This document shows positions 1,639 through 55,455 of a DNA stretch of 64,000 nt, piece by piece; position 1 is the stretch's first letter, and every line of letters starts with the position of its first letter. The notes beneath the pieces are model-generated. The model was not told where the DNA came from and made no database searches. It saw only the letters and a program-made list of their open reading frames with translations. The position numbers and the translations under genes are program-made. The stretch comes from a virus. Lineage: Duplodnaviria; Heunggongvirae; Uroviricota; Caudoviricetes. The stretch lies in IMG/VR virus record IMGVR_UViG_3300021387_001477, one strand, 5' to 3'.

Positions 1639-3134
1639 CAATTATGTTTACTTTAGGCCGTCTACTCCTAAAGCGAGAGTATCTCTCCACCTAGTTTCCT
1701 AGCGTGTTCAGACTATATTTTCATCTTCAGCATTACCTGGTCAGATGTCCTATCTTTCGAGTGGCCATAAGACTTGCCGCCCTACTCTCTTTCGAGATAG
1801 TCGTTGAAAGCGCAGTATTATATAAATCTAAATTCTGGTTGAAATTTACTTTTTATTCTGTAGTTTATTGCCTGTCTTTTTAGTCCATAGAATTTTGCAC
1901 ATTCTGTTATAGATCCAAAAATTTTCCCTTCAGCATATACTTGTTTTCTTAGTTTTTTCCTAGTACTTGGGTTATTCATGTTATCAACTCTAGTACATAT
2001 TCTAAGATTTGTTACGCGATTGTTTAATGGGTCAGTGTCTATGTGGTCTACCTGAAGATCGCTGCTCAGAGGCTGATTGTTATTTAGGAATACTTCAGCC
2101 ACTAGTCTATGAACTGGTAGCTTAGAGAGATATTGTCTATATCCGTTTTTCTTGCTTCCAAGAGTTATTCCTCGTTTTCCATTAATTATTCCTAATGGAT
2201 GAACTGAGAAGTTTCCGGAATAGTGTTGTACCCACAGAGAGCTGTCAATAGTCTCACCATCTAGCAGGTAATTTTCTAGTTCAACATCTACTATTTTCCA
2301 ATATCTTCCTCTATACCTCTTCCCGGCCTTAGCTTGATCACATAATGGATGTTTCATTAAATCGCTATTATATAATTCTTCTTCCGTATACGAAACATCA
2401 AACTTTGTAAGTTCTTTATCAAAATATGCTTCATATCTGTGATTTTTTACATATTTTGGTATTGATTTGTTTGAATTGTTTTCCTTAACGGTTACCCACC
2501 TTAGATTACTTAAAGAATAATCTAAAATGTTTCTATTTATATGATCGATTGACGTTTTTGTTTCTGGACAGTCCACTGGGATAAATAACTTTGCTAACAT
2601 TCTATGAATCATCACTTTTTTATCCTTAGTATAAGATCCAGTCGGAATTGAATACATAGGATAACCAGATTTATTAAATAATATGGTTTTGTATTGTGTT
2701 CCTTGTTTCCCCTGCTTTATAAATTCTCCTTTTCGATTAATTAGAAAAGCATTTACAACATTCATCTCAGGGTACAGGTACTTTTTTATATCGAACCACT
2801 CTTGATTAATATCATCATAGAAATAGTCCATCACTTCTCCACTTGTGGTGTTCCAACATAAAACTTCGTTTTTTATTTTTATAACTTGATATCCTACTTG
2901 ATCAACTCCTTCTCTGAATGGGATTGAGTTTTCAATAAGGAATTCTCTAGTTATTGTTTTCATTATGTCATGTCTTATCATAAGTATACTTATTTTAAAT
3001 ACTGCGCTTGCGGATTGTCCTTACTATATGAGTTTTTACTGTCAACCCAGTATCATATATTTAACAGGAGTTCCCCGCTTTTAATAGGATTATACGGTAT
3101 ATATTTCTATATACTAGGACAACTGTTACATTTT
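1639..3134 (-). mobile_element. group I intron 1 of topoisomerase II large-subunit gene, carrying an HNH homing-endonuclease ORF
   Basis: Interrupts IMTDADVDG motif; conserved intron 5' module repeated at 3055-3120 and 1350-1420; 3' R/S-like elements at 1700-1810; splice junction gaU|...G|gct. Confidence 0.7.
1818..2981 (-). CDS. HNH homing endonuclease (intron-encoded), paralog of 10386..11894
   Basis: HNH motif (HRLVAEVF...; DHIDTD...N) plus second HNH-like block HINRNILDYSLSNLRWVTVKEN; lies inside intron. Confidence 0.7.
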   Translation of the reverse strand: MIRHDIMKTITREFLIENSIPFREGVDQVGYQVIKIKNEVLCWNTTSGEVMDYFYDDINQEWFDIKKYLYPEMNVVNAFLINRKGEFIKQGKQGTQYKTILFNKSGYPMYSIPTGSYTKDKKVMIHRMLAKLFIPVDCPETKTSIDHINRNILDYSLSNLRWVTVKENNSNKSIPKYVKNHRYEAYFDKELTKFDVSYTEEELYNSDLMKHPLCDQAKAGKRYRGRYWKIVDVELENYLLDGETIDSSLWVQHYSGNFSVHPLGIINGKRGITLGSKKNGYRQYLSKLPVHRLVAEVFLNNNQPLSSDLQVDHIDTDPLNNRVTNLRICTRVDNMNNPSTRKKLRKQVYAEGKIFGSITECAKFYGLKRQAINYRIKSKFQPEFRFI

Positions 3135-10385: not shown

Positions 10386-11894
10386 ATGGTTTGTAATGAA
10401 CTAAAAGACAAATTACCTGAAGGATGGAGAGAAAAATTTGTACATAGAGACTGTGACCAAGCTAACTATGAATTCGCTATGTTTGAGATTGATGGGAAGA
10501 ATAAGATACTAGTCCGAAACCCAGATACCGACGACATAATGGAATACTACTATGATGATTTTGATGAATGGATTGAGATAGATAAAAAAGTTATGAGATC
10601 TCTAATAAATAAAGACACAGAGTCCAAAGTTTATATTAGTCCTGATGGAAAGTATATAAAACATATTGGAAGAAAGAAAAGAGAACTATCTTCAAAATTA
10701 GTAGATAGGTGCCCGTACCCAATAATATCCATATGTAGTTGTCAAGTAAAAACCCACAGACTTATAGCTTTTATATTTATTCCAAACCCATATCCAGAAA
10801 AATATAATATAGTTAATCATAAAGATCTAAGCAGAACAAACTTTAGCAAAGAGAACTTAGAATGGTGTGATGCTAAATGGAATGCAAAAAGAGAGAATCA
10901 AAAGAAATATATTCCTGGAACAGTTTATGAAAGACTATCAGATGGGAGAAGATTTTCTTCTGCTGATTTGGCCGAAGAGTATAAGAATAAGCAATCAAGC
11001 TCGGCAGTTTTGGGAGCAATTAGCCGCGGAAAAACTTATCATGGGAGTACATGGAGAGTAATAGACCTTTCATTAGAAGATTATTTATCACGACACCCGC
11101 TGACAGATAGTTGGATCCAACACCCTACACTAAAAGATGTTTATGTAAATAGCTGTGGAGTACTTAGGATAAAAGATAAAATAGTTGTTGGAAATAAACA
11201 CGAGTGTTTATATTATTCAATAAGTATTGAAGGGAAACTATATAAGACCCACAGAATAATAATGGAAGCCATTCTTAATAGAGAGCTCCTAAACACAGAG
11301 GTAGTTGATCATATTATTCCTGTTTCTAAAGATGACATAAACAATGAAATATCTAATCTTAGAGTAGGAACGCAAAAAGATAACCTAAATAATGAACATA
11401 CACGTATTAAGTGGATTAAGAAGGGATCGCTTAAAAAATTTTCATTATTTGGTGACTTTGTAGAAGAATATAAAACTATAGATGATGCGCTTAAGGCGAA
11501 TAGTGAGATAAAAAGTAAAGTCTTGCTTATTAGGGCAACTGAGCTAGGCGCTGGAGCACTTATTTCTGCTGGAAACTTTCTCTGGTGTTTTGAAGGAGAG
11601 GAGGATAGAGTAAAAGATAGACTAGATTTTATATACTACAAAACGCCAGTAAACTCCTTAACAATAAAACCAGAATCCGCCTCAATAAATCTCAAAGATC
11701 TATCCAAAGAAATCCCAATTAATAAACTCAACAAAGTACTGAACACAGGATTTCCCTTAAATGGATACGTTTACCAGCGGGGAAAACCTAATGATATCCT
11801 CATTGATAAATCTAATACAGCATTGGAGAAGAAACGAGATAATATATCATGGAGAGAGTTTACAGGAAGAAATAAAAATAGAGAAGACAACTAA
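10386..11894 (+). CDS. free-standing HNH homing-type endonuclease (paralog of 1818..2981)
   Basis: Shared N-terminal region (YYYDDFDEW vs YFYDDINQEW) and HNH blocks (THRLIAFIF...N; THRIIMEAIL...DHIIP...N). Confidence 0.65.
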   Translation: MVCNELKDKLPEGWREKFVHRDCDQANYEFAMFEIDGKNKILVRNPDTDDIMEYYYDDFDEWIEIDKKVMRSLINKDTESKVYISPDGKYIKHIGRKKRELSSKLVDRCPYPIISICSCQVKTHRLIAFIFIPNPYPEKYNIVNHKDLSRTNFSKENLEWCDAKWNAKRENQKKYIPGTVYERLSDGRRFSSADLAEEYKNKQSSSAVLGAISRGKTYHGSTWRVIDLSLEDYLSRHPLTDSWIQHPTLKDVYVNSCGVLRIKDKIVVGNKHECLYYSISIEGKLYKTHRIIMEAILNRELLNTEVVDHIIPVSKDDINNEISNLRVGTQKDNLNNEHTRIKWIKKGSLKKFSLFGDFVEEYKTIDDALKANSEIKSKVLLIRATELGAGALISAGNFLWCFEGEEDRVKDRLDFIYYKTPVNSLTIKPESASINLKDLSKEIPINKLNKVLNTGFPLNGYVYQRGKPNDILIDKSNTALEKKRDNISWREFTGRNKNREDN

Positions 11895-11912: not shown

Positions 11913-12323
11913 TTATCTAATTCTTCTAAACCTAACTACGTACTTGCTTTCATCTCTCCTAACTTGGGCCCCTTTTTCTCGAATGAATCTAAGAATTGGA
12001 TGGGTAATCCAGTTAGGAACTAAATCCTCTCGTTTAGTATCACACTCTACTTTAAGATCTTTGCAATTCATAATCTTATCATACATTCTTGTCATTGCAT
12101 ATGCACTCCCCTCAAATTCGATTGTATTTTCATCAATCATTTTCATAGGCATAGCACATTCATATGCATCCCCAGCTAATAGATCAAATAATAACTTAAT
12201 CTTTGGCCCATAACTCGCACAATATGACGTGTAATACTGATCATAGAACTTTCTAATCTCAAATATCTTAGAAGTTGGTACATAGTTTGTATTTGAATCC
12301 GTTATTACTTTATGTTTCCACAA
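11913..12323 (-). CDS. DNA polymerase A, terminal exon (motif C region and C-terminus)
   Basis: CASYGPKIKLLFDLLAGDAYECAMPMKMIDE ~ T7 gp5 LQSAGALICKLW...AYMAWVHDE; ECDTKREDLVPNWITHP ~ T7 DTEGKMGPNWAICH; preceded by intron S-element and G. Confidence 0.65.
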   Translation of the reverse strand: MWKHKVITDSNTNYVPTSKIFEIRKFYDQYYTSYCASYGPKIKLLFDLLAGDAYECAMPMKMIDENTIEFEGSAYAMTRMYDKIMNCKDLKVECDTKREDLVPNWITHPILRFIREKGAQVRRDESKYVVRFRRIR

Positions 12324-12640
12324 AGACTAGACTATATCATTATCCATATTTCAGGATAGATCGCGCTTCGAGAGCAGGACTTTCACCTGATCTCTACTTC
12401 CTTTCAGAATAGTCGTTACACCTTCCATTTCTGGCTTGGCTCGGGATTAGCATGCATTTCTGTTTAGCTTTCCCCGATAGCAAGATTTCTCTCACACCCT
12501 ATATTTCTAGGTTCACGATCTTTTGCACTCTAGAATTACCCCTAGAGGCCACAATTTTACTTATGGACTACAATAATTGGTTGGAGTGGTTGTTTCCAGC
12601 CCTCTTGTATTGATTCACGTATATTATTAAAGAATCCTGA
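12324..12640 (-). mobile_element. group I intron in polA (canonical core); 5' boundary approximate
   Basis: CGGGGAAAGCTAAACAGAAATGCATGCTAATCCCGAGCCAAGCC ... GTGTAACGACTATTCTGAAAGG ... AATGATATAGTCTAGTC ... G| then exon. Confidence 0.55.
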
Positions 12641-12669
12641 GGCCATGATTGAGGCAGTGCCACCTTGTC

Positions 12670-12700
12670 GTTATTACTTTATGTTTCCACAAAGACTAGA
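12670..12700 (-). repeat. duplicate of the 31-nt intron-3'-tail/exon-start sequence CTAGTCTTTGTGGAAACATAAAGTAATAACG (other copy 12298-12328)
   Basis: Exact-looking repeat directly after a second intron S-element but not followed by coding sequence. Confidence 0.5.
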
Positions 12701-12925
12701 TCATATCATTATCCACATTCATGGATAGGCTGCGCTTCGGAATACAGAATTTCACTGTAAACCTACTCCTTTCGGATGATCGTTACACTTTCTCTATCTC
12801 TAGAGCTTAGCACGGGATTGGCATATTATTACTAACTTAGCTTTCCCCGTTAGCAAGATCTCTCACACCTAAGATTTCTTAGTTCACAGCCTGTTTCATA
12901 TAGGATTACTCCTATAAGCTACAAT
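12700..12925 (-). mobile_element. group I intron in polA (canonical core); boundaries approximate
   Basis: CGGGGAAAGCTAAGTTAGTAATAATATGCCAATCCCGTGCTAAGC ... GTGTAACGATCATCCGAAAGG ... AATGATATGATCTAGTC. Confidence 0.5.
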
Positions 12926-13209
12926 TTTATTTATAGGAAGATTCACGCCTAATCTTTCACACCTCGCCTTTAGATTATTCTTCTCTCTGGAATTTGCTTT
13001 TAGCCACAGATCATATTCTTTAATTTTTAATTTATCGCCCATTATTGAATTAATATATCCATCATGGCTAAATGGATACTGTTGTTGAGAGGCCACATAC
13101 TCTCTCAATTTAGGGAAACTTGTATAAAGTCCCTGTATAATATCATCAGCTTCCTCTTCTGAGCAAAATAGTCTTTCAGCCAATGATTTCTTTCCTAGAC
13201 CATAAAGAA
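12896..13209 (-). CDS. DNA polymerase A internal exon (palm: end of motif B to QG region); true 3' splice end near 12926
   Basis: SLAERLFCSEEEADDIIQGLYTSFPKLREYV ~ Klenow [31 protein letters not shown]; ...ARCERLGVNLPIN ~ AAERAAINAPMQG; naive join to micro-exon is out of frame by one nt (see findings). Confidence 0.6.
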
Positions 13210-13464
13210 CCGTTTTGTTATCCTAGAAGTTTTTTTATCTCCTAGCTCTAGTAATTCATTTCTTACTAGTCCAGCATATATTTTCAACTCATATTTTCGA
13301 GTTGGTGGGCTCTCTTGGAAGGATTATATTTATTCACCTTCTATGCGTTACACTAGATTAAAGCCTCTCGCAATCTTTAACCTTAGCACGGGGTTTGGAT
13401 TCTCACCATTCACCGTTTTAGTCCACTTATCATCTATAATATCACTACTATAGACGGCATTTCT
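13210..13464 (-). mobile_element. family-B small group I intron (copy 2), 255 nt
   Basis: GTCTATAGTAGTGATATTATAGATGATAA...ACGGTGAATGGTGAG...GTAACGCATAGAAGGTGAATAAATATAATCCTTCC...GGATAACAAAACG; >80% identical to copies at 13485, 14242, 26113, 29352, 55218. Confidence 0.65.
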
Positions 13465-13484
13465 ACCTAAGAAGACAGTTTTGA
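13465..13484 (-). CDS. polA micro-exon (~20 nt, TCAAAACTGTCTTCTTAGGT) encoding core of polymerase motif B (KTVFLG ~ T7 AKTFIYG)
   Basis: Sits between two tandem family-B introns; with upstream exon gives RKRSF|KTVFLG; exact splice points uncertain. Confidence 0.45.
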
Positions 13485-13739
13485 CGTCTGTTATCCTATA
13501 GGCTTTTTATCCTATAGCTCTATTAGTTCATTTCCTAATAGTCCAGCATATATTTTCATCATTTCTTTTATGATGTCGAGCTCTCGTGGAAGGATTATAT
13601 TCTATTTATAGTTTCACCTTCTATGCGTTACGCTGCTATAGACTCTTTATTTCTATAGTTAGCACGGTATTAGGAATCTCACCCTTCACCGTTTTAGCTC
13701 GATTATCATCTATAGTATCACTACTATAGACGGCCCAAA
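13485..13739 (-). mobile_element. family-B small group I intron (copy 1), 255 nt
   Basis: Same conserved 5' GTCTATAGT..TATAG module, core and 3' GGATAACAGACG. Confidence 0.65.
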
Positions 13740-13740
13740 A

Positions 13741-13830
13741 TGACCTTTTTCTCCACATCTTCTTGTCTTTCTTGTCTAGTTTATCAAATTTATCGCCTAG
13801 ATAGAGCTTGGCGGTATATATATAACAATG
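13741..13830 (-). CDS. polA exon fragment (...TAKLYLGDKFDKLDKKDKKMWRKRS); 5' boundary unknown
   Basis: Open frame upstream of intron B1 ending in R-x-x-x-(F)K that completes motif B with the micro-exon. Confidence 0.35.
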
Positions 13831-13849
13831 TGTTCAGAGAGTGTCGTTA

Positions 13850-14143
13850 CTTCTCTCTGGTTCTCTTATGAACTCCTGTATATTTCTATACAGATCAGAC
13901 TATATCTTCACCTCAATACCGAGGGCTTACCGTTTCCACTACACGAACTTTGTAGTGTACTCTCTTTCGAGATAGTCGTTGGGGTTTTGATACAGAGCTA
14001 GTTAGTCATACTAGCCTTAATTTTATAAATATTTATCAAAACCTGCTGATTGGCCTTATTCTTTGATTTCTTACGGAAGTGACTAAATCTTCTCGTACCA
14101 AAGACTTAACGGGCGTTTCCAGCATTTAGTAAGTTTATTTTTC
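13850..14143 (-). mobile_element. group I intron (family C-like) in polA; boundaries approximate
   Basis: CAACGACTATCTCGAAAGAGAGTACAC ... GAAGATATAGTCTGATCTGTATAGAAATATACAGGAGTTCATAAGAGAACC tail (tail duplicated at 14530-14570). Confidence 0.45.
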
Positions 14144-14144
14144 T

Positions 14145-14241
14145 TGGGATCACTCCCAAGCGATACTTAAATCTAATATCTTCGCCTTTATTAAACTTAT
14201 CAATCAAGTCGGGATCTCCGCTTGCGAAACCTGCAGCTTTT
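14145..14241 (-). CDS. polA exon fragment between motifs A and B (KAAGFASGDPDLIDKFNKGEDIRFKYRLGV...)
   Basis: Follows G of intron B3; resembles Klenow LLTAFAEGKDIH region; ends at 20-nt hairpin repeat CTTGGGAGTGATCCCAAG. Confidence 0.4.
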
Positions 14242-14498
14242 CAGTTATGTTATCCTAAGAGCTTTTTATCTCTTAGTTCTATAGATTCTTATTTATATTC
14301 TCTATAGCTCGGCGTACATTTTTAACTATCGCTAGTTATCGGACACTCTTGGAGATACTATATTTATTCAATCTCTACGCTCTACATTACTAGAGTGCCT
14401 TTCGAAATCACTCTAGTTAACTCGGTATTTAGATTCACACTATTTACCGATTTTGCCCGATTATACTCTATAGTGTTTCCACTATAGACGGCATTTCT
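14242..14498 (-). mobile_element. family-B small group I intron (copy 3)
   Basis: GTCTATAGTGGAAACACTATAGAGTATAATCG...CGGTAAATAGTGTGAATC...GTAGAGCGTAGAGATTGAATAAATATAGTATCTCC...GGATAACATAACTG. Confidence 0.6.
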
Positions 14499-14509
14499 AC
14501 CTCTGCACT

Positions 14510-14741
<232 letters not shown>

Positions 14742-17423
14742 TTAGTTTTTCTTGGGATCACTCCCAAGTGACACCAATAATTTATTTTCAATGTCAAAAT
14801 AAGTTTCAATAAAGTCTTCATCTACTATATTCCCATTCTCGTCAATATGATATGGCGTTCGAACACAATCTTTAAAATCTGCATGACTAACCAAGACATG
14901 GAACGCACTAGACCACCTCTTTGAACTCTTTGTGTTGACCTCATAATGACAAAAGCATTTATGTACTGCTCCTGGCTCATTAGGGTCAGCTTCACGAATA
15001 GGAATATGTTTTTCGTCCTCAATTACCCACTTTCCCTCTTTCAGCATTCCATCAATATAGGTCGATAGAACCTTTGAATATTTTTTGAAGAGCAGATAAT
15101 TGATGACCATTTTTCTCATAAAATAGAATCTGTTATCAAAGTCAGATTCATTGAAGATCTTTCCATAATCTTCATATTGATCAGAAACATACTTAAAGAA
15201 CTGTTCCTGAGCGATATATCCATTAAAGTTACTCCACACCTCTTTTACCTGATCACATCCTAAGTCATTATAGAATTGATCAAACAGGACATATACTTTT
15301 TCTGGATAACTGGTTTGCCCTACTGGAGTTCCTTGATAAAGTTTTGTATAGTTCTCTCCAAAATGAGCAAATCCATCTTCAACTGTTTTTATACCGAGTT
15401 GTTCATAATATTTTTCTGCGCCTGGAAGTTGCTGCGCACTTTCAAACATTGCAGCGAGATATGCAGACTCGGTAGGATACAGTTGAGCAAATTCCAAACA
15501 GATCTCATCATTTTCAATGGGGGACTTACACTTAAAGAAGTTATCCGATACATAATCTGAATAACTAATTAAATCCCATTTTTGTCCAAATGCATAGATC
15601 TCTTGAGGAATGTTTTGTATGTCATTAAGTTGATTCTTTGAGACTTTCATTAACTCATTGAACGCTCTTTCATAATATAGATACTTCTCAAGCTCTATGT
15701 GTTTGTCATTTATCTTTATTTTATCTAGTCCGATTATAGGAATTAGTTTATCTCCCAAGACCTGTTGGATCTTCTTCTTTCCGCCAATTCCTGAATCAAT
15801 CTTAGACTTCAATACTTTCTGACCTGTTTTCTTATAGAGTTTTATCATTCCTACCTCTTCCATTGCTTCTCTTAGGACTTTCATAAAATTGGTAGCAAAG
15901 TCTGGACCATACTTCATTAATAATTGGCCCTCGTTTATACCAAGTTCATAAGCATCCATAGTATCAACATTAGAAGTCAGAAGATACTTAGCTATTTCAG
16001 CCGGATTTCCATTAAAGAAGGTATTATCATGCAGCAGTTTCTTGGCAATATCAGAATAATTATCTATATTTGCCATCTTTTTCTTGTGCTTATCCATCTT
16101 TATTTTACACCTAGCTTCACTACAAAACGTAATGCTCCACGCAATCATCTCTTTCGACTTCTTTTCATACTCCAATCTAAATGGCTCGTCAATATATAGG
16201 CCACAATTATGAAGTCTGGCGCCCAATCTTGCATTATCCATAAAGGTTCTAATACAATCTTCAGAGAATTTATCTTTCTCTACCAGATGTATCATAAGAG
16301 TATAGAAAGCGTCAAGATTACAATAATACCCTAATATTTCTGATGGAACACACATAAATGAACTCTTGTCCCAGTATTCAAGTATTAAAGCTTCAAATTC
16401 ATTTATATAACTTGGGTATCTTGCGCATATCTCAGCCCATTCCGGAGTTGTTTTAAAATCAGAGGGAGTAATTTTTAGAACTTTCTTCTTATCTTTCTTA
16501 AGTTTCCCTACTTCTTCATAAAACATGCTTTCAACAAGATCTGAGATTCTGTCAAACTCGGTATCCCAGACAGTAGCCTGAAGTATCATTTGGGCTGACC
16601 ACTTTAAGGAATATTTCTTTAAGTGATTTCCCTCAATGACATTATAAACAGACGCATCTATAAGATTATATAGGTCTACTCCAAACATTCTATGAGATAC
16701 GGCCTGTTCATATTGCATATTATAAGTTACAAGATGACTCTGCCTATGATTCAAAAAATCTCCAAATCTTTTACATATCATTCCGTATTGTTCAGGACTA
16801 CATGTATGTCTAAGATCTGTAAAACTTATAAATCCTCCGAAGTTTTTTGTACACAGTGATGCCCCAGATATATCAAACCATACATCCAAAGCCATACCAG
16901 ATGCCTCGAAGTCAAAGCCTAGGTCCTCAGTCTCTGGAAGATTACAAAGCCAGTCTAAAAATTTCATTGCTCCAGTAAAATCATGAATAACTTTACTTTG
17001 GAACCAGGAAAAATCAACGGGCTGTGTAAATCCTGGAGACATAAAATCTCTAATTATGTCTGGAGAAGGAGGATCTAGAACTACCTTAACAAAAGCTCCG
17101 CCCTCTATACTTAACCTTCGAAGTTTGGACACATCGAAGTAATTCTCTGACCTAACCCCAAAGTGATAGAACTGGTTTAGATATCGATAAGGTTCTGCCC
17201 CCACCAACATAACAGCATCACTTGGGCCTAATGTCAGAAACTCTCTTTTTGCATCATCGGACATAGATTCAATATTCTCAACCGTAAAGATCTGAGATGA
17301 ATCCAGCCCTATTCCATAATAATCCACCACGTAATTTGGTGTTTCTTTAGCTGAAATTAATACAAATCGTTTGTTCATAAATCTAAATATTAATATACCT
17401 TTGAGCCGATATCTTACATACAC
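14742..17423 (-). CDS. DNA polymerase A exon 1 (N-terminal region incl. 3'-5' exonuclease-like domain, no polymerase motifs A/B/C)
   Basis: 893-aa ORF; GFDFEASGMALDVWFD exo-like block; last codons overlap the 20-nt hairpin repeat so true 5' splice site may lie slightly upstream of the stop. Confidence 0.65.
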   Translation of the reverse strand: MYVRYRLKGILIFRFMNKRFVLISAKETPNYVVDYYGIGLDSSQIFTVENIESMSDDAKREFLTLGPSDAVMLVGAEPYRYLNQFYHFGVRSENYFDVSKLRRLSIEGGAFVKVVLDPPSPDIIRDFMSPGFTQPVDFSWFQSKVIHDFTGAMKFLDWLCNLPETEDLGFDFEASGMALDVWFDISGASLCTKNFGGFISFTDLRHTCSPEQYGMICKRFGDFLNHRQSHLVTYNMQYEQAVSHRMFGVDLYNLIDASVYNVIEGNHLKKYSLKWSAQMILQATVWDTEFDRISDLVESMFYEEVGKLKKDKKKVLKITPSDFKTTPEWAEICARYPSYINEFEALILEYWDKSSFMCVPSEILGYYCNLDAFYTLMIHLVEKDKFSEDCIRTFMDNARLGARLHNCGLYIDEPFRLEYEKKSKEMIAWSITFCSEARCKIKMDKHKKKMANIDNYSDIAKKLLHDNTFFNGNPAEIAKYLLTSNVDTMDAYELGINEGQLLMKYGPDFATNFMKVLREAMEEVGMIKLYKKTGQKVLKSKIDSGIGGKKKIQQVLGDKLIPIIGLDKIKINDKHIELEKYLYYERAFNELMKVSKNQLNDIQNIPQEIYAFGQKWDLISYSDYVSDNFFKCKSPIENDEICLEFAQLYPTESAYLAAMFESAQQLPGAEKYYEQLGIKTVEDGFAHFGENYTKLYQGTPVGQTSYPEKVYVLFDQFYNDLGCDQVKEVWSNFNGYIAQEQFFKYVSDQYEDYGKIFNESDFDNRFYFMRKMVINYLLFKKYSKVLSTYIDGMLKEGKWVIEDEKHIPIREADPNEPGAVHKCFCHYEVNTKSSKRWSSAFHVLVSHADFKDCVRTPYHIDENGNIVDEDFIETYFDIENKLLVSLGSDPKKN

Positions 17424-19805: not shown

Positions 19806-19879
19806 GTAGCGGGGATCAGGATCGAACTGATGACCTCAACGGGTTATGAGCCCGGAATGCTACCACTGCACTACCCCGC
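19806..19879 (-). tRNA. tRNA-Met (CAU); some non-canonical pairs (acceptor/anticodon stem), possibly initiator-like GGG/CCC anticodon stem
   Basis: Cloverleaf on minus strand: anticodon loop CUCAUAA, T-arm ATCAG/TTCGATC/CTGAT. Confidence 0.55.
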
Positions 19880-19883
19880 GATA

Positions 19884-20027: not shown

Positions 20028-20771
20028 TTAATTTTCTCTGCCAATGAAAATTTTAGCTATTTTCCAGGCCTTGTCAGAGAGTTTAAATAGATACTTGTCA
20101 TCGTTATAATTAGGATCCATGATGTCTTTTATAATCTTGGTTCCTAGGATCTCTCTCACTTCTTCACATGCGTCGTGATAAGCTTGGAGATATAAACTCG
20201 ACTCTATTACTTCTCTTGGCGCGTTCTTATAGCATTCAAGATATTTCAATTCTTTTGGTTCGTTTATATCTTCTTCACTCTCCTCCAATACTCCTTCAAT
20301 TCGCCGGTAAAGAAATCCGAGTTTACCAGAATAATCATAAGGGCTGTAGTTATCTGGCACATATTCTAATGGACTAGAAAAAGTAGGTCTTGATACTTTC
20401 CATTGATTTCCACACCCCTTACACTCATTCACTCTAAAGGATTCTAGGTCTGGTTCTTCATCGGCCGAATATGAAAAGCTATTCTTAGAGAGTTTCTGGC
20501 CAAAGACGTATTTATTTATCACATCTTCGCAACCACACTTAGGACATTTAGAGTTTTTGGCTTCACACTCTTTTATATCTTTCCCCATACTCTCTTTCCC
20601 AAGCTTTTCTCTTTCGGCCGTATGTTTTTCCAGCCAAGAGTTAATTAAATTCTTTCTATACTCTTTTCTCTTTTCAACCTCCCACTTTGCTTTTTTCAAC
20701 TCAGCCTTTTTCTTCTCTTCCTTCTTAGCTTTTCTTCTTTTAATTCCAAACCAATCTATCATAACGAACAA
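20028..20771 (-). CDS. hypothetical zinc-ribbon protein
   Basis: CPKCGCED...CKGCGNQW; Lys/Glu-rich N-terminus. Confidence 0.5.
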   Translation of the reverse strand: MFVMIDWFGIKRRKAKKEEKKKAELKKAKWEVEKRKEYRKNLINSWLEKHTAEREKLGKESMGKDIKECEAKNSKCPKCGCEDVINKYVFGQKLSKNSFSYSADEEPDLESFRVNECKGCGNQWKVSRPTFSSPLEYVPDNYSPYDYSGKLGFLYRRIEGVLEESEEDINEPKELKYLECYKNAPREVIESSLYLQAYHDACEEVREILGTKIIKDIMDPNYNDDKYLFKLSDKAWKIAKIFIGREN

Positions 20772-21927: not shown

Positions 21928-22225
21928 GGTCCATTAATTCAGTGGTTAGAATGGCTGACTCATGATTATTACGATTGTGTGCTTAGGAAGGAAACGCCTA
22001 AGTAGATTCCCCCAAATTCGGTGAAAGCTAAGGAGAAATCTATGCTAATACCGAGCCAAGCAGGTATATATAATAAATACTGGGCGTGTGTAGAGACTAG
22101 ATGGAGGAGGCCTAAGTAGAAATATATGGTCGTGGTATAGTCCAGTTCAGCAAACATGAAATTATGGCACGAAAGTGTAGTTGAAACGAATCAGTAAGTC
22201 GCAGGTTCAAATCCTGCATGGACCA
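21928..22225 (+). tRNA. tRNA-Met/Ile (CAU) interrupted by a 225-nt group I intron (21964..22188) between positions 36 and 37
   Basis: Exon1 GGTCCAT..GCTGA-CUCAU (ends in U); exon2 AA-TCAGT-AAGTC-GCAGGTTCAAATCCTGC-ATGGACC-A; intron ends in G. Confidence 0.7.
21964..22188 (+). mobile_element. group I intron (ORF-less) in tRNA-Met
   Basis: TTCGGTGAAAGCTAAGG...GCTAATACCGAGCCAAG...TGTAGAGACTAGATGGAGG (R element)...GGTATAGTCC (S element). Confidence 0.75.
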
Positions 22226-22296
22226 CAAATAAAAAATCTAATAGTCCGATAGCTAGAGATATCGTCTCTCGGACTATTTTCGAAACAATAACAGAC

Positions 22297-22596
22297 GGCC
22301 CGATAGTTCAGAGGATAGAACGACAGCCTTGAAGCGCTAAAAATGATATTAGCATTAGGAGTGCACTGAGGGAAACTTCAGATGTAGAACTCTTCAAATT
22401 CGGGGAAAGCGTAATAGCCAATCCCGAGCCAAGCCTAGAAAATCGTTCTAGGAAGGTGTAGAGACTAGACGGAGAGGGCCTAAAAGATTATTTGATAATC
22501 TCATGGTCAAGGGATAGTCCGAGATGAGAATTATTATTAATTATTCTCATTGAGCTAAGCTGTAAGTCCTGCGTTCGAATCGCAGTCGGGCCGCCA
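22297..22596 (+). tRNA. tRNA-Arg (UCU, inferred from splice rules) interrupted by a 224-nt group I intron (22331..22554); CCA encoded
   Basis: GGCCCGA-TA-GTTC-AGAGGATA-GAAC-G-ACAGC-CUU|intron|CUAA-GCTGT-AAGTC-CTGCG-TTCGAAT-CGCAG-TCGGGCC-G-CCA; anticodon assignment depends on exact junction. Confidence 0.6.
22331..22554 (+). mobile_element. group I intron (ORF-less) in tRNA-Arg
   Basis: GAGTGCACTGAGGGAAACTTCAGATGTAGAAC...TTCGGGGAAAGCG...CCCGAGCCAAGCC...GGTGTAGAGACTAGACGGAGAGGGCCTAA...GGGATAGTCCGAG. Confidence 0.75.
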
Positions 22597-22737: not shown

Positions 22738-22808
22738 AGCAGGATTGGTGTAATGGTAGCATTTGACACCTCCAATGTCACGGTAGGATTTCGAATATCC
22801 TATCCTGC
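22738..22808 (+). tRNA. tRNA-Gly (UCC)
   Basis: Acceptor GCAGGAT/ATCCTGC perfectly paired, anticodon stem TGACA/TGTCA loop CCUCCAA, T-arm AGGAT/TTCGAAT/ATCCT. Confidence 0.75.
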
Positions 22809-22894
22809 TCGAATCCGACAAAGGATAACTTAGTCATATCTCCTTAAAGGAGATGTTTCTTTTTTATTTATCCGGGAAGCGGTAAAGTTAAGTT

Positions 22895-24136
22895 ATGACA
22901 TTAGACGAGTTTAAAAATCTAAGCGATGAAGAACTAATTGGTCTATTTAAAGATTTTGGGTATAGTGCTAAGAATATAAACAACGCTTTTGGTTTTTCCA
23001 GAAATACAACGGAAAGGCTATTCAACAAAAGAGGAATTGATCGTAATAAACTAATAGAAGGCCACGATAATGAAGCAAAAGAAGAATATGAAAAGAATCC
23101 AAAGATTTGTAAATACTGTGGTAACCCAATGCCTTGGGAAAAGCGAAGAAATATGTATTGTAATAGTTCCTGCGCTGCTTCTGAAAACAATAAAGGAGTG
23201 GTCAGAAATGTGGAAGGAAATATTGTTAATCTTAAGAAAGCAAATCCTAATATAGGAAATGCAAAATATCCTGGGGAGCTAAGCGAAGCAAGAAGAAGAC
23301 AAGTCGAGCACAATAATATTATAAAGAATCATGAAGATTTAGATATTCCTGAAATAGGCTTGGGGTGTTGCTTTATTTGTGGACAAAAAGAGTGTTCTAG
23401 TGAATTTTGTAAAGAACATAACTTTAGCCAGCTTATTGGTTTATCGTATCGTTATGGACTAGATTCAAAATTAATAGGAACTGTTAATATATTTAATGAG
23501 TTTACAAGAATCAGAGAGTTAGTATATGACCTATATTGGAATCAGGGACTCTCAGGACGAGACTTGTCAGAACGATTTGGGGTTCCAGAATCTACTATAA
23601 TATCACAAGATTTTGATGTTTTAGATATTCCAAGACGATCAGCAGAAGAGTCAGTAAGAAACTCGCTACTTCAAGGAAAACGGCTTCCACCTCTAAACTC
23701 AAAGATTGGAATACAGGAATGGCATACTACTTGGACAGGAGAACGCGTATTCCTTAGAAGCTCTTATGAGACAGACTATGCAAATTGGCTTGATGAAAAC
23801 CAAATATCATATTCAGTTGAAGAGCTTAGAATAGAATATTATGATACTCAACAAAATAAAACTAGAATAGCTATACCAGACTTTTACTTATCCAGCACTA
23901 ATGAGATAGTTGAAATCAAATCAGATTTTACACTAGACATACAAGAAATGCTAGATAAGTTTAATGCATATAAAGAGAATGGCTATATTCCAAAATTAGT
24001 TCTTGAAGGAAAAGAGGTAGATATCTATAGAATTGAGGAAGAGATTGATGAAAAAAGAATTAATAAGATAAAAACAAAAAATATTAATTCATTCAGAAAC
24101 AATGGAAACTCAGATATAGATCGAGATAAGACTTAA
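22895..24136 (+). CDS. hypothetical nuclease-like protein: N-terminal HTH-like, Cys4 zinc ribbon, C-terminal putative PD-(D/E)xK motif
   Basis: CKYCGNPMPW...CNSSC; IPDFYL...EIVEIKSD pattern. Confidence 0.4.
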   Translation: MTLDEFKNLSDEELIGLFKDFGYSAKNINNAFGFSRNTTERLFNKRGIDRNKLIEGHDNEAKEEYEKNPKICKYCGNPMPWEKRRNMYCNSSCAASENNKGVVRNVEGNIVNLKKANPNIGNAKYPGELSEARRRQVEHNNIIKNHEDLDIPEIGLGCCFICGQKECSSEFCKEHNFSQLIGLSYRYGLDSKLIGTVNIFNEFTRIRELVYDLYWNQGLSGRDLSERFGVPESTIISQDFDVLDIPRRSAEESVRNSLLQGKRLPPLNSKIGIQEWHTTWTGERVFLRSSYETDYANWLDENQISYSVEELRIEYYDTQQNKTRIAIPDFYLSSTNEIVEIKSDFTLDIQEMLDKFNAYKENGYIPKLVLEGKEVDIYRIEEEIDEKRINKIKTKNINSFRNNGNSDIDRDKT

Positions 24137-25593: not shown

Positions 25594-25665
25594 GATCCAT
25601 TAGTTCAACGATAGAACAACTGTCCCTAAAACAGCACGTTGTCGGTTTGAATCCGACATGGATCA
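25594..25665 (+). tRNA. tRNA with anticodon CUA (amber-suppressor-like; anticodon loop CCCUAAA with C33 and a 27-43 mismatch)
   Basis: GATCCAT-TA-GTTC-AACGATA-GAAC-A-ACTGT-CCCUAAA-ACAGC-ACGTT-GTCGG-TTTGAAT-CCGAC-ATGGATC-A; otherwise canonical 72-nt cloverleaf. Confidence 0.5.
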
Positions 25666-25702
25666 CAAAGGACCTAAAATCCTTATAAAAGAAAATAAAT
25701 AA

Positions 25703-25857: not shown

Positions 25858-25878
25858 CAATCGAAACAAAATAACAAC

Positions 25879-25938
25879 GGAAAGTAGTGCTAACGGCGAC
25901 TTTTAATAGGGTATGTAGTTCGATGCCACTGCTTTCCG
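25879..25938 (+). pseudogene. 60-nt truncated tRNA-like element (acceptor GGAAAGT/GCTTTCC paired, too short for a cloverleaf)
   Basis: Acceptor-like pairing and TTCGATG T-loop-like block but missing arm(s); same acceptor design as following tRNA-Ser. Confidence 0.3.
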
Positions 25939-25950
25939 CAAAAACTATAT

Positions 25951-26038
25951 GGAAGGTTATTTCACCCGGCGGTGGACCTAGTCTTGAAAATTAGTGGTAC
26001 GTAAGCATTCGTATGGGGATCGACACCTCAGCCTTCCG
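25951..26038 (+). tRNA. tRNA-Ser (UGA), type II with long variable arm
   Basis: Acceptor GGAAGGT/GCCTTCC, anticodon stem CTAGT/ATTAG loop CUUGAAA, variable stem TACG/CGTA, 88 nt. Confidence 0.5.
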
Positions 26039-26057
26039 CTCAAAACAAAATAACAAT

Positions 26058-26390
26058 CGGGATGTAGCGCAGTTGGTAGCGCATGTGGTTTGGGACCACA
26101 GGGTCGCAGGTTTATTTTTACAATGGACGTCTATAGTGGAAACATTATAGAGAATAATTGGGCAAAAACGGTGAAGGCTGAGATTGCTAACGCCGTGCTA
26201 ACTAGATATATTGCGAAAGGATATCTAGCAGCGTAACGCATAGGAAGTGAATAAATATAATCTTCCCACGAGTGTCCAACAGCCACAGTAGATGTGGTTG
26301 AAAACGTATGCTGGACTAATACAAAATGAAGTATTAGAACATAGAGATAAAAAGCTTTATGGTTAACATTCGCGAGTCCTGTCATCCCGA
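26058..26390 (+). tRNA. tRNA-Pro (UGG) interrupted in the T-loop by a 260-nt family-B group I intron (26113..26372)
   Basis: Exon1 CGGGATG-TA-GCGC-AGTTGGTA-GCGC-A-TGTGG-UUUGGGA-CCACA-GGGTC-GCAGG-TT (ends U); exon2 CGAGT-CCTGT-CATCCCG-A restores T-loop TTCGAGT and acceptor; intron ends ...AACATTCG. Confidence 0.7.
26113..26372 (+). mobile_element. family-B small group I intron in tRNA-Pro T-loop
   Basis: GACGTCTATAGTGGAAACATTATAGAG...ACGGTGAAGGCTGAGATTGCTAACGCCGTGCTAACTAG...GCGTAACGCATAGGAAGTGAATAAATATAATCTTCC. Confidence 0.65.
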
Positions 26391-28852: not shown

Positions 28853-28900
28853 AAAATTGTAGACTCGGCTTGGTGGTGGAATGGTAGACACGAGGGACTT

Positions 28901-29319
28901 TAACGTTACTTAAAGGGAAATTATTTCCAACTTATTAAGTATAATTTGAGTGCACTGAAGGAAACTTTAGATGTAGAACCTCCCTAATTCGGTGAAAGCT
29001 AAGCGCAACGCTGCAAAACGCTCCCTGAAATACGGTTAGCGCCTATAGGATAAAGATGCGTATAAATTGCGTATGCTAATACCGAGCCAATGTTTAAAGA
29101 CAGTGTGTAGAGACGAGATACGGGAGGGACCTAAGTTGAAATTTATAAACGTAGTGGGTGGGAATTACCACGTTAAATCCAAAACCTGAGATAAAAGGCA
29201 TTTATAATCTTGCAAGATTTCAATATGGTTAAGATACAGTCCAGACCACAAACAGATTAAGAGCAGAACCAACCTGTATATCAAAGATTTAATCTGGTAG
29301 CGAAAGCTATAGTGGTAAG
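28901..29319 (+). mobile_element. group I intron at the classical tRNA-Leu(UAA) U34/A35 site
   Basis: GAGTGCACTGAAGGAAACTTTAGATGTAGAAC...TTCGGTGAAAGCTAAGC...ACCGAGCCAATG...GTGTAGAGACGAGATACGGGAGGGACCTAA...GATACAGTCC. Confidence 0.65.
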
Positions 29320-29351
29320 AAAATCCCTTGGGCAGAAGTGCCCGTGTGGGT

Positions 29352-29605
29352 TCTCAATCGAGCCGTCTATAGTGGAAACATTATAGATTATAACTGAGCA
29401 AAATCGGTGAAAGCTGAGATGCCAATACCGAGGTAACTATGGGAATATCGAAAGGTCCTATAGCACCGTAGAGCATAGAAGGTGAATAAATATAATCCTT
29501 CCAAGAGTGTTCAGCATCATGGAAGAAGTGATGAAGATATATGCCGAACTATTAGGAAATGAACTAATAGAGCACAGAGATAAAAAACTCTGTGGATAAC
29601 AAATT
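29352..29605 (+). mobile_element. family-B small group I intron in tRNA-Leu T-loop
   Basis: Near-identical to 26113..26372 and 55218..55455 copies; ends GGATAACAAATTG. Confidence 0.6.
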
Positions 29606-29697
29606 GTCGAATCCCATCCGAGCTACAATATAGCCCTGAAATAGTAAAAACGCTATTTTCAGGGTTTCTTTTCCTTATTAATGAAAGGATATCAATT

Positions 29698-36336: not shown

Positions 36337-37887
36337 ATGCTAAAAGAAAAAGTATTATATTCATTGCGGGATATTTCTATAATTCCCGCAGTATCGACTA
36401 GTATTAGATCAAGAAAAGAATGTGACCCCTATAGAAAAAGTATAGAGGGAGAACCCGGATGGTACCCTTTGATTGCCTCTCCTATGGACTCTGTTATGGA
36501 TGATACGAATTGGAAATATTACTGGGATAATAAAATATCCTGTGTTATTCCAAGATCTATCCCACAGAGTTACCAAGAAAAAGGGTATGAGGATGGAGGA
36601 TATGAGGCTTGGTTTGAAGAAAGGAGAAAATTATGCTCTAAGGTATTTTGTGCATTTAGTTTGAAGGAAGCTAAGTGGTTCCTGGATAACTCTTATGACT
36701 ATAGTGATAAAAGCTTTAGTGATGGCCTGAGGATTTATGTCTTAATTGATATAGCCAATGGTAGTATGCAAGAGGAGATAGACCTTGGAAAAGAACTAAA
36801 GAGGAAGTATGGAGAAGGAATAATATTAATGGGAGGAAATATTGGAAATCCCCAGACGTACCTTCTTTATGATCAAGCCGGGTTTGATTTTCTTAGAGTG
36901 GGAATCGGAAGCGGACAGGGGTGTTTAGCCGGAAATACTAAAATTCCCATGTCTGATGGAACTACAAAGAATATAAAGGACTTAGTTGTTGGCGATCATA
37001 TTAAGACTATTACAGGAGACCAAAGAGTCAATGAGATTATACAAAATACCTCTGATCAGTTAGTAACAATAAATAAAGAACTGACATGTACACCAAATCA
37101 TAAATTATTTGTAATTGACAAAGACAACGGGGATCTAGTGACTAAAGAAAATATAATTTCCTTAGGACATTATGTAGAGGCTGGAGACCTAGATAAGGGG
37201 AAACATTTATTAGTCAAATTAAAGACGGAAAATTTAAAGGAAAAACTTAATAACAATATAGGATTTAATAACCCCTATAAAGCAATGGATTTTAGGCTTG
37301 AAGAAATAACCTCAATAGAAAAGATTGAAAAAGCCGTATCTACGTTTGATATAGTAGTTTCCGGAGAAGAGCACTCATTTATTACAGAGGATGGATATAT
37401 CGTTCACAACTGCCTAACTTCCACCTCAACGGCAATCCACTATCCTTACGCATCTCTGATAAGTGAAATATCTGAAATGAAGGATAGATATCATAGTCAC
37501 TGTAAAATTATAGCCGATGGAGGAATGGCATGGTATAGCGATATAATTAAGTCTCTTGCCCTTGGTGCTGATTATGTTATGTGTGGAAAAATATTCTCAC
37601 AGGCAGCAAAGACACCAGAAGAAGTAGGCCAGACATTGGTATATCGAGGAATGTCTACTAAAGCTGCTCAGGCTGGGATGGGGAATACAGGAACTCTTAA
37701 GACCGCCGAAGGAAAGAGTATGGAAGTCGTGAAGGAATATACTCTCTCGGGGTGGACGGAAAACTTTGATTCTTATCTCAGAAGTGCTATGTCCTATTGT
37801 GACTCTAGATCATTGAAAGAATTTAGGGAAAAGGCCATATGTCAGGTTATCTCTCCGAACGCCTCTTCACAAATAAATAATAAATAA
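36337..37887 (+). CDS. GMP reductase/IMP dehydrogenase-family (GuaC-like) protein interrupted by a mini-intein
   Basis: VGIGSGQG-C[intein]-LTSTSTAIHYPYASLISEI and IIADGGMAWYSDIIKSLALGADYVMCG match IMPDH/GuaC active-site loop and ADGG/ALGA motifs; extein ~353 aa. Confidence 0.6.
   Translation: MLKEKVLYSLRDISIIPAVSTSIRSRKECDPYRKSIEGEPGWYPLIASPMDSVMDDTNWKYYWDNKISCVIPRSIPQSYQEKGYEDGGYEAWFEERRKLCSKVFCAFSLKEAKWFLDNSYDYSDKSFSDGLRIYVLIDIANGSMQEEIDLGKELKRKYGEGIILMGGNIGNPQTYLLYDQAGFDFLRVGIGSGQGCLAGNTKIPMSDGTTKNIKDLVVGDHIKTITGDQRVNEIIQNTSDQLVTINKELTCTPNHKLFVIDKDNGDLVTKENIISLGHYVEAGDLDKGKHLLVKLKTENLKEKLNNNIGFNNPYKAMDFRLEEITSIEKIEKAVSTFDIVVSGEEHSFITEDGYIVHNCLTSTSTAIHYPYASLISEISEMKDRYHSHCKIIADGGMAWYSDIIKSLALGADYVMCGKIFSQAAKTPEEVGQTLVYRGMSTKAAQAGMGNTGTLKTAEGKSMEVVKEYTLSGWTENFDSYLRSAMSYCDSRSLKEFREKAICQVISPNASSQINNK
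36922..37410 (+). mobile_element. mini-intein (163 aa, no homing-endonuclease domain) in the catalytic Cys loop of GuaC-like protein
   Basis: Begins CLAGNTKIPMSDGTTKNIKDLVVGDHI (Hint block A), ends ...FITEDGYIVHN followed by extein Cys. Confidence 0.6.
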
Positions 37888-55217: not shown

Positions 55218-55455
55218 AAATGATTTGCCGCATTATATAATGATACTTCGGGTAAAAACGGTGAAGGGTGAGATTCCTAATACCGTGCTAACTACTGTAA
55301 TTACGAAAGGTATAGTAGTAGTGTAGAGCATAGAGGTTGAATAAATATAATACCTCCAAGAGTATCCGACATAGAGATATGAAAATATATGCCGAACTAA
55401 TACGAAATGAAGTATTAGAACTATAGGATAAAAAGCTTATAGGATAACAAAATTG
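55218..55455 (+). mobile_element. family-B small group I intron splitting the helicase Walker A motif; begins AAATGA (in-frame stop)
   Basis: ACGGTGAAGGGTGAGATTCCTAATACCGTGCTAACTAC...GTGTAGAGCATAGAGGTTGAATAAATATAATACCTCC...GGATAACAAAATTG; join gives TSYG|KTELIA = GxxxxGKT. Confidence 0.65.

Follow-up and report, generated by a model that had tools for sequence, protein, structure and literature searches.

Introduction

The tRNA genes of bacteria are host to a well known type of group I intron. Four classical bacterial classes, all marked IC3, have been listed, including Ile2.5Ug, that is, the insertion at position 36/37 of tRNA-Ile2 (Williams, bioRxiv 10.1101/2020.01.27.920355), and the survey by Nakagawa et al. 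(2026; PMC13011429, Table S5) contains many bacterial introns at position 34/35 of tRNA-Arg(TCT), with the junction CCTT|...G|CTAAG and the guide 'taggag', together with an intron at position 36/37 of tRNA-Ile2(CAT) in Bacteroidota. Among the 333 bacterial tRNA introns of this survey, 12 carry an endonuclease gene, and all these 12 are longer than 500 bp. As to phages, a review published in 2014 (PMC3984707) stated that all the introns then known were located in protein genes, despite the presence of many phage tRNA genes. We describe here two adjacent tRNA genes, tRNA(CAU) and tRNA-Arg(UCU), each interrupted by a small group I intron, in a stretch of 64,000 nucleotides (referred to as the window; all positions given below are window positions) from the viral record IMGVR_UViG_3300021387_001477, which is part of an uncultured contig of 317,399 bp. 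The most probable reading, held here with good confidence, is that both are functional tRNA genes of a huge phage, each carrying in its anticodon loop a small IC3-like group I ribozyme free of an endonuclease gene. In the literature searched, the coverage of which is incomplete, we found no account later than the 2014 review of a phage tRNA gene interrupted by such an intron, and this is absence of evidence only.

Organization of the two split tRNA genes

The two genes lie on the plus strand with a 70-nt spacer between them and together span positions 21928-22596. When introns were allowed, ARAGORN predicted two split genes, tRNA-Met(cat) (21928-22226), interrupted by 225 nt after tRNA position 36 [i(37,225)], and tRNA-Arg(tct) (22297-22596), interrupted by 224 nt after tRNA position 34 [i(35,224)]. 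In the ARAGORN run without introns, neither of the split genes was detected. The parts of both genes are as follows.

21928-21963, plus strand: 5' exon of tRNA(CAU), with acceptor, D arm, anticodon stem and loop CUCAU, the final base being U(-1) (ARAGORN, spliced cloverleaf)
21964-22188, plus strand: intron 1, group I, 225 nt, IC3-like, without open reading frame (ORF), site 36/37, 3' end ..AAACG (omega-G) (Rfam, R1 model, core covariation, P1/P10)
22189-22226, plus strand: 3' exon of tRNA(CAU), with AA, anticodon stem, variable loop, T arm, acceptor and discriminator A (ARAGORN, cloverleaf)
22297-22330, plus strand: 5' exon of tRNA-Arg(UCU), ending in ..CCUU, U34 being U(-1) (ARAGORN, cloverleaf)
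22331-22554, plus strand: intron 2, group I, 224 nt, IC3-like, without ORF, site 34/35, 3' end ..UUGAG (omega-G) (Rfam, R1 model, P1/P10, homologous junctions)
22555-22596, plus strand: 3' exon of tRNA-Arg(UCU), including CCA (ARAGORN, cloverleaf)

Both insertions are thus within the 7-nt anticodon loop, and the CCA end is encoded by the tRNA-Arg(UCU) gene and not by the tRNA(CAU) gene. A preliminary description of this locus, made from the letters of the window, had proposed two adjacent tRNA genes, each with an intron of about 225 nt in the anticodon loop, and had suggested folding of the spliced products as a check. After joining of the exons, both products folded into canonical ARAGORN cloverleaves of 74 and 76 nt, and the arrangement as proposed was borne out by ARAGORN, Rfam, the P1/P10 pairings, covariation and homologous loci.

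Identification of the introns as group I elements

Using the Rfam model Intron_gpI (RF00028) in a permissive regional scan, we obtained full-length model matches for both introns, at 21951-22160 for intron 1 (48.3 bits, E 4e-11) and at 22340-22536 for intron 2 (49.7 bits, E 2e-11); over the whole window the E-values are about 1e-9. The Infernal search proposed in the preliminary description therefore gave the expected end-to-end matches, with E near 1e-11, and left both scores under the curated Rfam gathering cutoff for this model, which is 50 bits. In a scan of the window at the default threshold, neither of the two tRNA introns was reported, and four other group I introns were. The blindness of both default Rfam and intron-free ARAGORN to the two genes is a matter of thresholds, not of absence. 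For comparison, Intron_gpI matches of at least 18-20 bits have been accepted when nested in a split tRNA (Williams, bioRxiv 10.1101/2020.01.27.920355).

The conserved elements of group I introns were located where they had been described. The window contains just two copies of the R element, GTGTAGAGACTAGA.GG (22088-22104 and 22456-22472), against an expectation of 0.03, and the S elements are GGTATAGTCC at 22134-22143 and GGGATAGTCC at 22511-22520, this 10-mer by itself being not above chance. The rule that the intron be preceded by U and end with G also holds, and it is decisive for the position, as only one out of eight loop positions in each gene combines U(-1) with omega-G, namely, CUCAU|...G|AA and CUU|...G|CUAA. 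The internal guide sequence (IGS), read directly from the sequence, is 5'-GAUU|GUG-3' at 21973-21979 for intron 1, in which GUG forms P1 with the exon CAU, including a G.U wobble at U(-1), and GAUU forms P10 with AAUC of the 3' exon. For intron 2 the IGS, read likewise, is 5'-UUAG|GAG-3' at 22355-22361, with P1 formed between GAG and the exon CUU, again with a G.U wobble, and P10 between UUAG and CUAA of the 3' exon. Two independent features determine the splice sites, the sole U(-1)/omega-G position in each loop and the contiguous fit of P10 and P1.

For analysis of the core pairing, 13 short cores were aligned (alignment A2), 11 of them taken from viral loci and the others from introns 1 and 2, and 30 pairs of P3, P4, P5, P6, P7 and P8 were assigned by hand on this alignment. 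Standard pairs occupied 95.8% of the cells, as compared with 26-43% when the partners were slid by 1-3 columns, and compensatory changes were found for 13 of the 30 pairs; the observed values were matched by none of 500 shuffles. The core helices P3-P8 with the P3/P7 pseudoknot are conserved, and P7 (GACUA/UAGUC), the guanosine-binding helix, is 100% paired. A covariance model built from the same alignment (R1) gave 98.7 bits for intron 1 and 110 bits for intron 2, both of which are members of the training set, and further matched the anticodon-loop intron of tRNA-Leu(UAA) of the window (45.7 bits), two introns of a polymerase-like gene and, more weakly, a second, divergent intron family of the window (see below). 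The cores of intron 1 and intron 2 are 66% identical to each other, and closer relatives were found elsewhere, at 74% in a viral tRNA-Asn intron and at 77% in introns of two other viral loci (L007 and L030). Recent duplication of one intron from the other was considered and ruled out by this 66% core identity and by the closer similarity of each to other sequences.

Several points weigh against functional introns of this type. The two Intron_gpI scores fall 0.3-1.7 bits short of the gathering cutoff, P1 consists of only 3 bp, P3 of intron 1 contains one C.A mismatch, and self-splicing of both introns is inferred from the family they belong to. A P1 of 3 bp is also found in the tRNA introns of Azoarcus and Anabaena. 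The low Rfam scores and the P3 mismatch, as well as the lack of an endonuclease gene and hence of ongoing renewal by homing, would be expected if the introns were decayed relics that no longer splice, leaving two pseudogenes, and yet all the core helices are intact within the family-wide covariation, U(-1), omega-G, P7 GACUA/UAGUC, P1 and P10 are all present, the exons make perfect cloverleaves for the most used Ile and Arg codons of the genome, and small endonuclease-free introns are the norm in bacterial tRNAs (12 of 333 with such a gene; PMC13011429). We consider decay to be very unlikely, and retain the reading of two functional, intron-bearing tRNA genes.

Intron class and bacterial relatives

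As judged from their sequences, both introns are IC3-like introns of the bacterial tRNA type, an element type that is well known. The strings CAAAUUCGG.GAAA, CCGAGCCAAGC, GGUGUAGAGACUAGAYGG and GGKAUAGUCC are common to the window introns and the IC3-labelled bacterial tRNA introns (Table S5, PMC13011429). By global alignment, the scores were 141-197 for IC3 references, 106-108 for IB2 and 130-148 for IA1, IC3 being mostly ahead of IA1 by a small margin that is weakly discriminating. The subgroup assignment is a further weak point, the pairwise scores favouring IC3 only weakly. Neither intron contains an endonuclease gene, and with 225 and 224 nt both are too short for one.

When bacterial genomes were scanned for exact copies of the window introns' 19-nt core string, 36 genomes were found, in 34 of which the string is located within an anticodon-loop intron. 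These 34 introns reside in tRNA-Leu(UAA) at 34/35 (31 cases), tRNA-Arg(UCU) at 34/35 (2 cases) and tRNA-Thr (1 case). The two Arg(UCU) genes are from metagenome-assembled genomes (MAGs) of Paludibacteraceae (locus L057) and Bdellovibrionota (locus L066). The Paludibacteraceae locus, from horse faeces, carries within 629-1164 a tRNA-Arg(tct) with a 294-nt intron at 34/35, directly followed by a second intron-core-like stretch, the locus being truncated at 1164; this second stretch may represent another adjacent intron-bearing tRNA, echoing the tandem layout of the window.

Since Table S5 contains the Arg(TCT) and Ile2(CAT) introns and Ile2.5Ug is among the classical classes of Williams, both insertion sites, 34/35 of tRNA-Arg(TCT) and 36/37 of tRNA-Ile2(CAT), correspond by sequence to established bacterial classes. 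The junction of intron 2, CCTT|...G|CTAAG, is identical in the two bacterial MAG loci and in two viral ones, L006 and L027. The anticodon UCU, which had at first been deduced from the splice rule, is now supported by ARAGORN and by the homologous Arg(UCU) 34/35 introns of phage and bacterial loci.

Identity of the CAU tRNA

The anticodon CAU of the first tRNA stood as originally described, and its designation as tRNA-Met is less probable than tRNA-Ile2, which carries lysidine and reads AUA. When the tRNA was compared with every complete E. coli genome, the genes that matched it best over the full length were those named tRNA-Ile by PGAP, i.e., Ile2 with anticodon CAU, and the identity is 58/74 (78%) to E. 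coli Ile2 versus 51/76 (67%) to the elongator metT. The Ile2 genes of Stx phages (ileZ) also match over the full length. The acceptor stem contains C4-G69 and C5-G68, and initiator features are absent. C4-G69 and C5-G68 are the pairs by which TilS of E. coli separates tRNA-Ile2 from tRNA-Met. The insertion site of intron 1, 36/37, is the classical Ile2 site, and the anticodon arm, GCTGACTCAT/AATCAGC, is shared with the Bacteroidota Ile2(CAT) 36/37 gene (Table S5, PMC13011429).

Codon usage points in the same direction: ATA represents 42% of Ile codons (34 per 1000) in 27 long ORFs, and no second AUA-reading tRNA was found in the 64-kb window. In the same ORFs AGA represents 59% of Arg codons, in agreement with the earlier statement that it is the dominant Arg codon. 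A pair of Ile2 and Arg(UCU) tRNAs would serve the commonest 'rare' codons of this 35%-GC genome. The scanned ORFs of the window included no TilS-like gene.

An elongator tRNA-Met is possible, and is the less favoured of the two identities. ARAGORN gives this name, from the anticodon; the nearest homologues, 80.6% identical and from Klebsiella jumbo phages, are mostly annotated as tRNA-Met in the phage records; and the other CAU tRNA of the window (19806-19880, minus strand) is initiator-like, with positions 1 and 72 mismatched and with GGG/CCC in its anticodon stem, so that no elongator Met tRNA would be left within the 64 kb. Against this identity, older tools label any CAU tRNA as Met by default, and the E. 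coli matches, the acceptor pairs, ileZ, the insertion site, the Bacteroidota anticodon arm and the abundance of ATA without another reader in the window all favour Ile2. It counts against the Ile2 assignment that it rests on similarity to E. coli tRNAs and on determinants known from E. coli.

Nature of the contig

The window belongs to contig NODE_16 of ENA assembly ERZ12302816 (317,399 bp, GC 35%). The 2.5-kb contig AUXO017503040.1, from an independent assembly, is 100% identical over tRNA(CAU), intron 1 and part of the Arg gene. From its gene content and its relatives, the contig is very probably that of a huge phage. The matches in PHROG and domain searches include T4-type topoisomerase II subunits, NAPRTase, an RNA-ligase/phosphoesterase (phosphatase), several free-standing HNH endonucleases, an intein and an SPFH protein. 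Of 42 small ORFs, 38 are without Pfam match, and the window carries an array of 14 tRNA genes including a CUA suppressor tRNA. Related arrays with intron-bearing tRNA genes were found in IMG/VR, in contigs between 100 and 360 kb long, and in phage LR756501 (735 kb). The closest topoisomerase of a cultured phage is only about 27% identical.

What speaks against a phage is that no capsid, portal, terminase or tail gene was detected in the window or in 8 kb of flank. This lack of virion genes would be natural for a cellular contig, either of a reduced bacterium such as a member of Patescibacteria or of a megaplasmid, and the introns would then be nothing more than the usual bacterial ones; the flank encodes Ldh, PTH2 and a methyltransferase, and tRNA group I introns are frequent in Patescibacteria and Cyanobacteriota (PMC13011429). 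We regard a cellular origin as improbable, since about 72 kb contain no ribosomal or housekeeping genes and about 90% of the small ORFs match no Pfam family, since the genes listed above, i.e., the T4-type topoisomerase II, NAPRTase, RNA ligase/phosphoesterase, many HNH genes, intein, tRNA array and CUA suppressor, are typical of jumbo phages, since the polymerase-like gene is riddled with introns and the nearest tRNA/intron arrays are in IMG/VR viral contigs, and since the tRNA introns of Patescibacteria are of subgroup IA at 35/36, not IC3-like at 34/35 or 36/37.

Under the phage assignment, some further genes of the window deserve description. The tRNA with the CUA anticodon (amber suppressor; ARAGORN label 'Pyl') is located at 25594-25666 on the plus strand. 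Recoding of TAG was examined in the window and is not supported, as reading TAG as sense lengthens ORFs no more than reading TGA or TAA does, and recoding, if any, would therefore be found elsewhere in the genome. An IMPDH/GMP-reductase-like gene at 36337-37887 (plus strand) holds the intein (Hint and Intein_splicing domains). An RNA-ligase/phosphoesterase-type gene is present at 47661-48878 (plus strand), and an RNA ligase and the PTH2 peptidyl-tRNA hydrolase are encoded just beyond the window (20044-20736 of flank locus L084); these RNA-repair-type genes and PTH2 appear, from their sequences, to form a toolkit for tRNA repair and translation beside the tRNA array.

tRNA introns in other viral contigs

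By pattern scan of IMG/VR with the 19-nt core string GTGTAGAGACTAGAYGGAG, we identified 29 viral loci, in at least 8 of which the core is located inside an intron-bearing tRNA gene as predicted by ARAGORN; IC3-like cores were also found outside tRNA calls in many viral loci. Introns at 34/35 of tRNA-Arg(tct) are carried by L006 (a 250-kb contig) and L027 (a 108-kb contig; 554-nt intron). The other split tRNAs of viral loci are Leu(taa) in L011 and L025 and Asn(gtt), at 35/36, in L013, with more in L002, L026 and L027. In the 735-kb phage LR756501, tRNA-Leu(UAA) is split by an intron of 205 nt, detected by both ARAGORN and BLAST; at this locus Rfam gave nothing at E <= 0.01, which looks like a limitation of its filter. 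Together with at least 8 other viral contigs, the locus described here indicates that the protein-genes-only statement of 2014 fails for uncultured large phages. Intron-less tRNA-Arg(UCU) genes are present in the related viral arrays L021, L026 and L029.

The search for intron-less or polymorphic alleles of the present locus, made in metagenomes with the 24-nt Ile2 3' exon, gave AUXO017503040.1 only, which is identical to the window. Exact-protein look-ups returned the same phage only, and a scan of viral contigs with a neighbouring 230-aa protein gave relatives at 30-41% identity without synteny.

Other introns in the window

The preliminary description had counted five intron-containing genes among 14 tRNA genes. 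The count is instead four intron-bearing tRNA genes (CAU, Arg, Pro and Leu-UAA) with five introns, among about 14 tRNA or tRNA-like genes, as tRNA-Leu(UAA) has two. For two of the five tRNA introns, the insertion site is the T-loop and not the anticodon loop. The tRNA-Pro(UGG) gene (26058-26390, plus strand) contains a 260-nt element (26113-26372) in the T-loop after U55, which matches Intron_gpI weakly (26.1 bits, E 7e-5) and R1 at 26 bits; the spliced sequence is a clean tRNA-Pro in ARAGORN, and the T-loop within its T-arm, GCAGG-TTCGAGT-CCTGT, is identical to that of tRNA-Pro in L027, which has no intron (GTACG-TTCGAGT-CGTAT). The tRNA-Leu(UAA) gene (about 28867-29625, plus strand) carries an IC3-like intron at 34/35 (28901-29319, 419 nt) and one in the T-loop after U54 (29352-29606, 255 nt). 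Removal of both yields a clean 86-nt tRNA-Leu(taa); the presence of two group I introns in one tRNA gene is unusual. Group I introns in the T-loop have been described for transfer-messenger RNA (Williams, bioRxiv 10.1101/2020.01.27.920355), and no report of one in the T-loop of a tRNA was found in the literature searched.

The two T-loop elements belong to the divergent family, which has six copies with 72% mean identity, at 13212-13462, 13472-13735 and 14243-14500 (minus strand) and at 55222-55452, 26113-26372 and 29352-29606 (plus strand). The family has the signature ..CCGTCTATAGTGGAAAC.., GTAACGCATAG, ATATGCTGGACTA and GGATAACA, and is group I-like by Intron_gpI matches of 26.1 bits (E 7e-5) and 28.7 bits and R1 scores of 19-32 bits; it also interrupts a protein gene in the viral loci L017 and L022. 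Its copies are found in protein genes and tRNA T-loops alike, which suggests, from sequence comparison, that the family has spread recently within this genome.

At least seven protein-gene introns were found in the window, in the polymerase-like gene and in a helicase-like gene. The polymerase-like gene itself (about 12200-17423, minus strand), the naming of which is a guess based on a motif in one exon, is broken up by at least seven group I introns, of which three belong to the divergent family and four exceed the Rfam threshold (12308-12572, 12677-12942, 13876-14185 and 14564-14800); the latter are those reported by the default scan and lie in this protein gene, not in tRNAs. The 893-aa N-terminal ORF (14742-17423) gave no match in Pfam, PHROG or phage tblastn searches.

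Features around the two genes

Besides the exons and introns, the region contains the following features.

22240-22278, plus strand: hairpin in the spacer between the two tRNAs, followed by UUUU (folding versus shuffles)
22739-22810, plus strand: tRNA-Gly(UCC), intron-less, downstream of tRNA-Arg (ARAGORN, Rfam tRNA)
22836-22856, plus strand: terminator-like hairpin with T-run after tRNA-Gly (consensus match only)

The spacer hairpin has a minimum free energy of -15.6 kcal/mol (z = -3.35; equally stable shuffles 0/200), was not picked up by the terminator scan, and possibly serves as a processing or attenuating signal. The site at 22836-22856 is a possible end of the tRNA operon. The spacer hairpin and the terminator-like site after tRNA-Gly together suggest a single transcript for tRNA(CAU), tRNA-Arg and tRNA-Gly. 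The sigma-70 promoter scan gave a result no better than chance.

Three free-standing HNH-type ORFs were noted, at 22895-24136 (plus strand), 1818-2981 (minus strand) and 10386-11894 (plus strand), the first one directly after tRNA-Gly and about 300 nt downstream of the intron-bearing tRNA-Arg; such free-standing endonucleases are candidates for mobilization of ORF-less introns in trans. Within the tRNA array, two tRNA-like sequences were missed by both ARAGORN and Rfam, i.e., a 61-nt hairpin or mini-tRNA at 25878-25938 (plus strand) with a 7-bp acceptor-like stem (z = -2.7), and a 90-nt cloverleaf at 25951-26040 (plus strand) with a long variable arm, the anticodon UGA (Ser-like) and the atypical T-loop AUCGACA.

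Predicted splicing and origin of the introns

The two genes would be transcribed, probably jointly with tRNA-Gly. In each transcript P1 would arise by pairing of the guide sequence with the three nucleotides at the end of the 5' exon (CAU or CUU), a U.G wobble marking the 5' splice site. Attack on this site would come from exogenous guanosine docked in P7, after which omega-G would take the P7 pocket, the 4-bp P10 (AAUC or CUAA) would align the 3' exon, and the exons would be ligated. The predicted products are a CAU tRNA, most likely tRNA-Ile2 that would read AUA after lysidine formation by the host TilS, and tRNA-Arg(UCU).

The introns themselves are best seen as tolerated selfish elements that were acquired independently, as their cores are only 66% identical, and not as adaptive devices. 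Their spread, if any, would need help from nearby free-standing HNH endonucleases, since they have no endonuclease gene of their own. One could alternatively think of the introns as adaptive, either by making the tRNA supply dependent on GTP or Mg2+ or by shielding the precursor or the gene against host anticodon nucleases or tRNA-gene-cutting endonucleases; the circumstantial grounds for this are that the interrupted tRNAs read AUA and AGA, the dominant codons of the phage, that RNA-repair-type genes (RNA ligase/phosphoesterase) are present in the window and flank, and that the HNH-like ORF 22895-24136 is located 300 nt downstream. Such a role seems very unlikely, because the mature tRNAs are the same as intron-less ones and no protection would be gained, the related viral arrays commonly have an intron-less tRNA-Arg(UCU) (L021, L026 and L029), and the saturation of the genome with protein-gene group I introns argues for general permissiveness and not for a tRNA-specific function.

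The findings have some consequences beyond this locus. As standard tRNA finders and the default Rfam threshold miss split genes, the tRNA repertoires of huge phages would be undercounted, those missed here being the tRNAs for the most used Ile and Arg codons. Since the intron family is also found in bacteria (Bacteroidota, Burkholderiales and others), in their tRNA-Leu and tRNA-Arg genes, it is plausible that tRNA introns reached their patchy horizontal distribution by way of phage tRNA genes. More tentatively, and with considerable doubt, phage tRNA arrays might harbour and transport group I introns of the bacterial tRNA type without this having been recognised. The introns would then be actively colonising tRNA genes, at sites not described before for tRNAs such as the T-loops of tRNA-Pro and tRNA-Leu, and be mobilized in trans by the surrounding free-standing HNH endonucleases, and huge phages would carry them from one bacterial phylum to another.

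Comparison with known systems

Intron 2 resembles the bacterial Arg(UCU) 34/35 introns of Bacillota and Bacteroidota (Table S5, PMC13011429) and of the two MAG loci, L057 and L066, in the junction ..CCTT|intron..G|CTAAG.. and in the guide UAGGAG for P10 and P1; these bacterial introns are 213-340 nt in length and are mostly labelled IC3. It differs from them in that most of the published Bacillota and Bacteroidota Arg(UCU) introns have the core wording CCGTAGAGACTAC and CCGAGGAAAC, whereas the core of intron 2 (GGTGTAGAGACTAGACGG and CCCGAGCCAAGC) resembles the tRNA-Leu(UAA) type, as do those of L057 and L066, and in that intron 2 sits in a phage, without endonuclease gene. The tRNA-Leu(UAA) 34/35 IC3 introns of cyanobacteria, plastids and other bacteria have the same core family as introns 1 and 2, which are instead located in other tRNAs (Arg and Ile2/Met) and hence have other guide sequences; introns of this Leu(UAA) kind are also present in the window itself and in phage LR756501.

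Intron 1 is comparable to the Azoarcus-type tRNA-Ile intron, which likewise is small and interrupts a tRNA with anticodon CAU in its anticodon loop (PMC13168695). It differs from the latter in its length of 225 nt, its AT-richness, its P2, P6 and P9, and its location in a phage-like genome instead of a betaproteobacterium. The P1 of Azoarcus is also CAU:GUG, and its core strings CAAAUUCGG.GAAA, CCGAGCCAAGC and AAGGUGUAGAGACUAGACGG are near-identical.

With the phage protein-gene group I introns, such as those of T4 td, nrdB and nrdD, of the SPO1 and Bastille DNA polymerases, of Twort and of the crAss-like Zeta group, the present system shares the phage host and the high intron load in core genes. 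Those protein-gene introns often carry homing-endonuclease ORFs, in contrast to the two introns described herewith, which are ORF-less and interrupt tRNA genes. What is known is thus the element type, and what is new is its setting in a phage and the density of tRNA introns in one genome.

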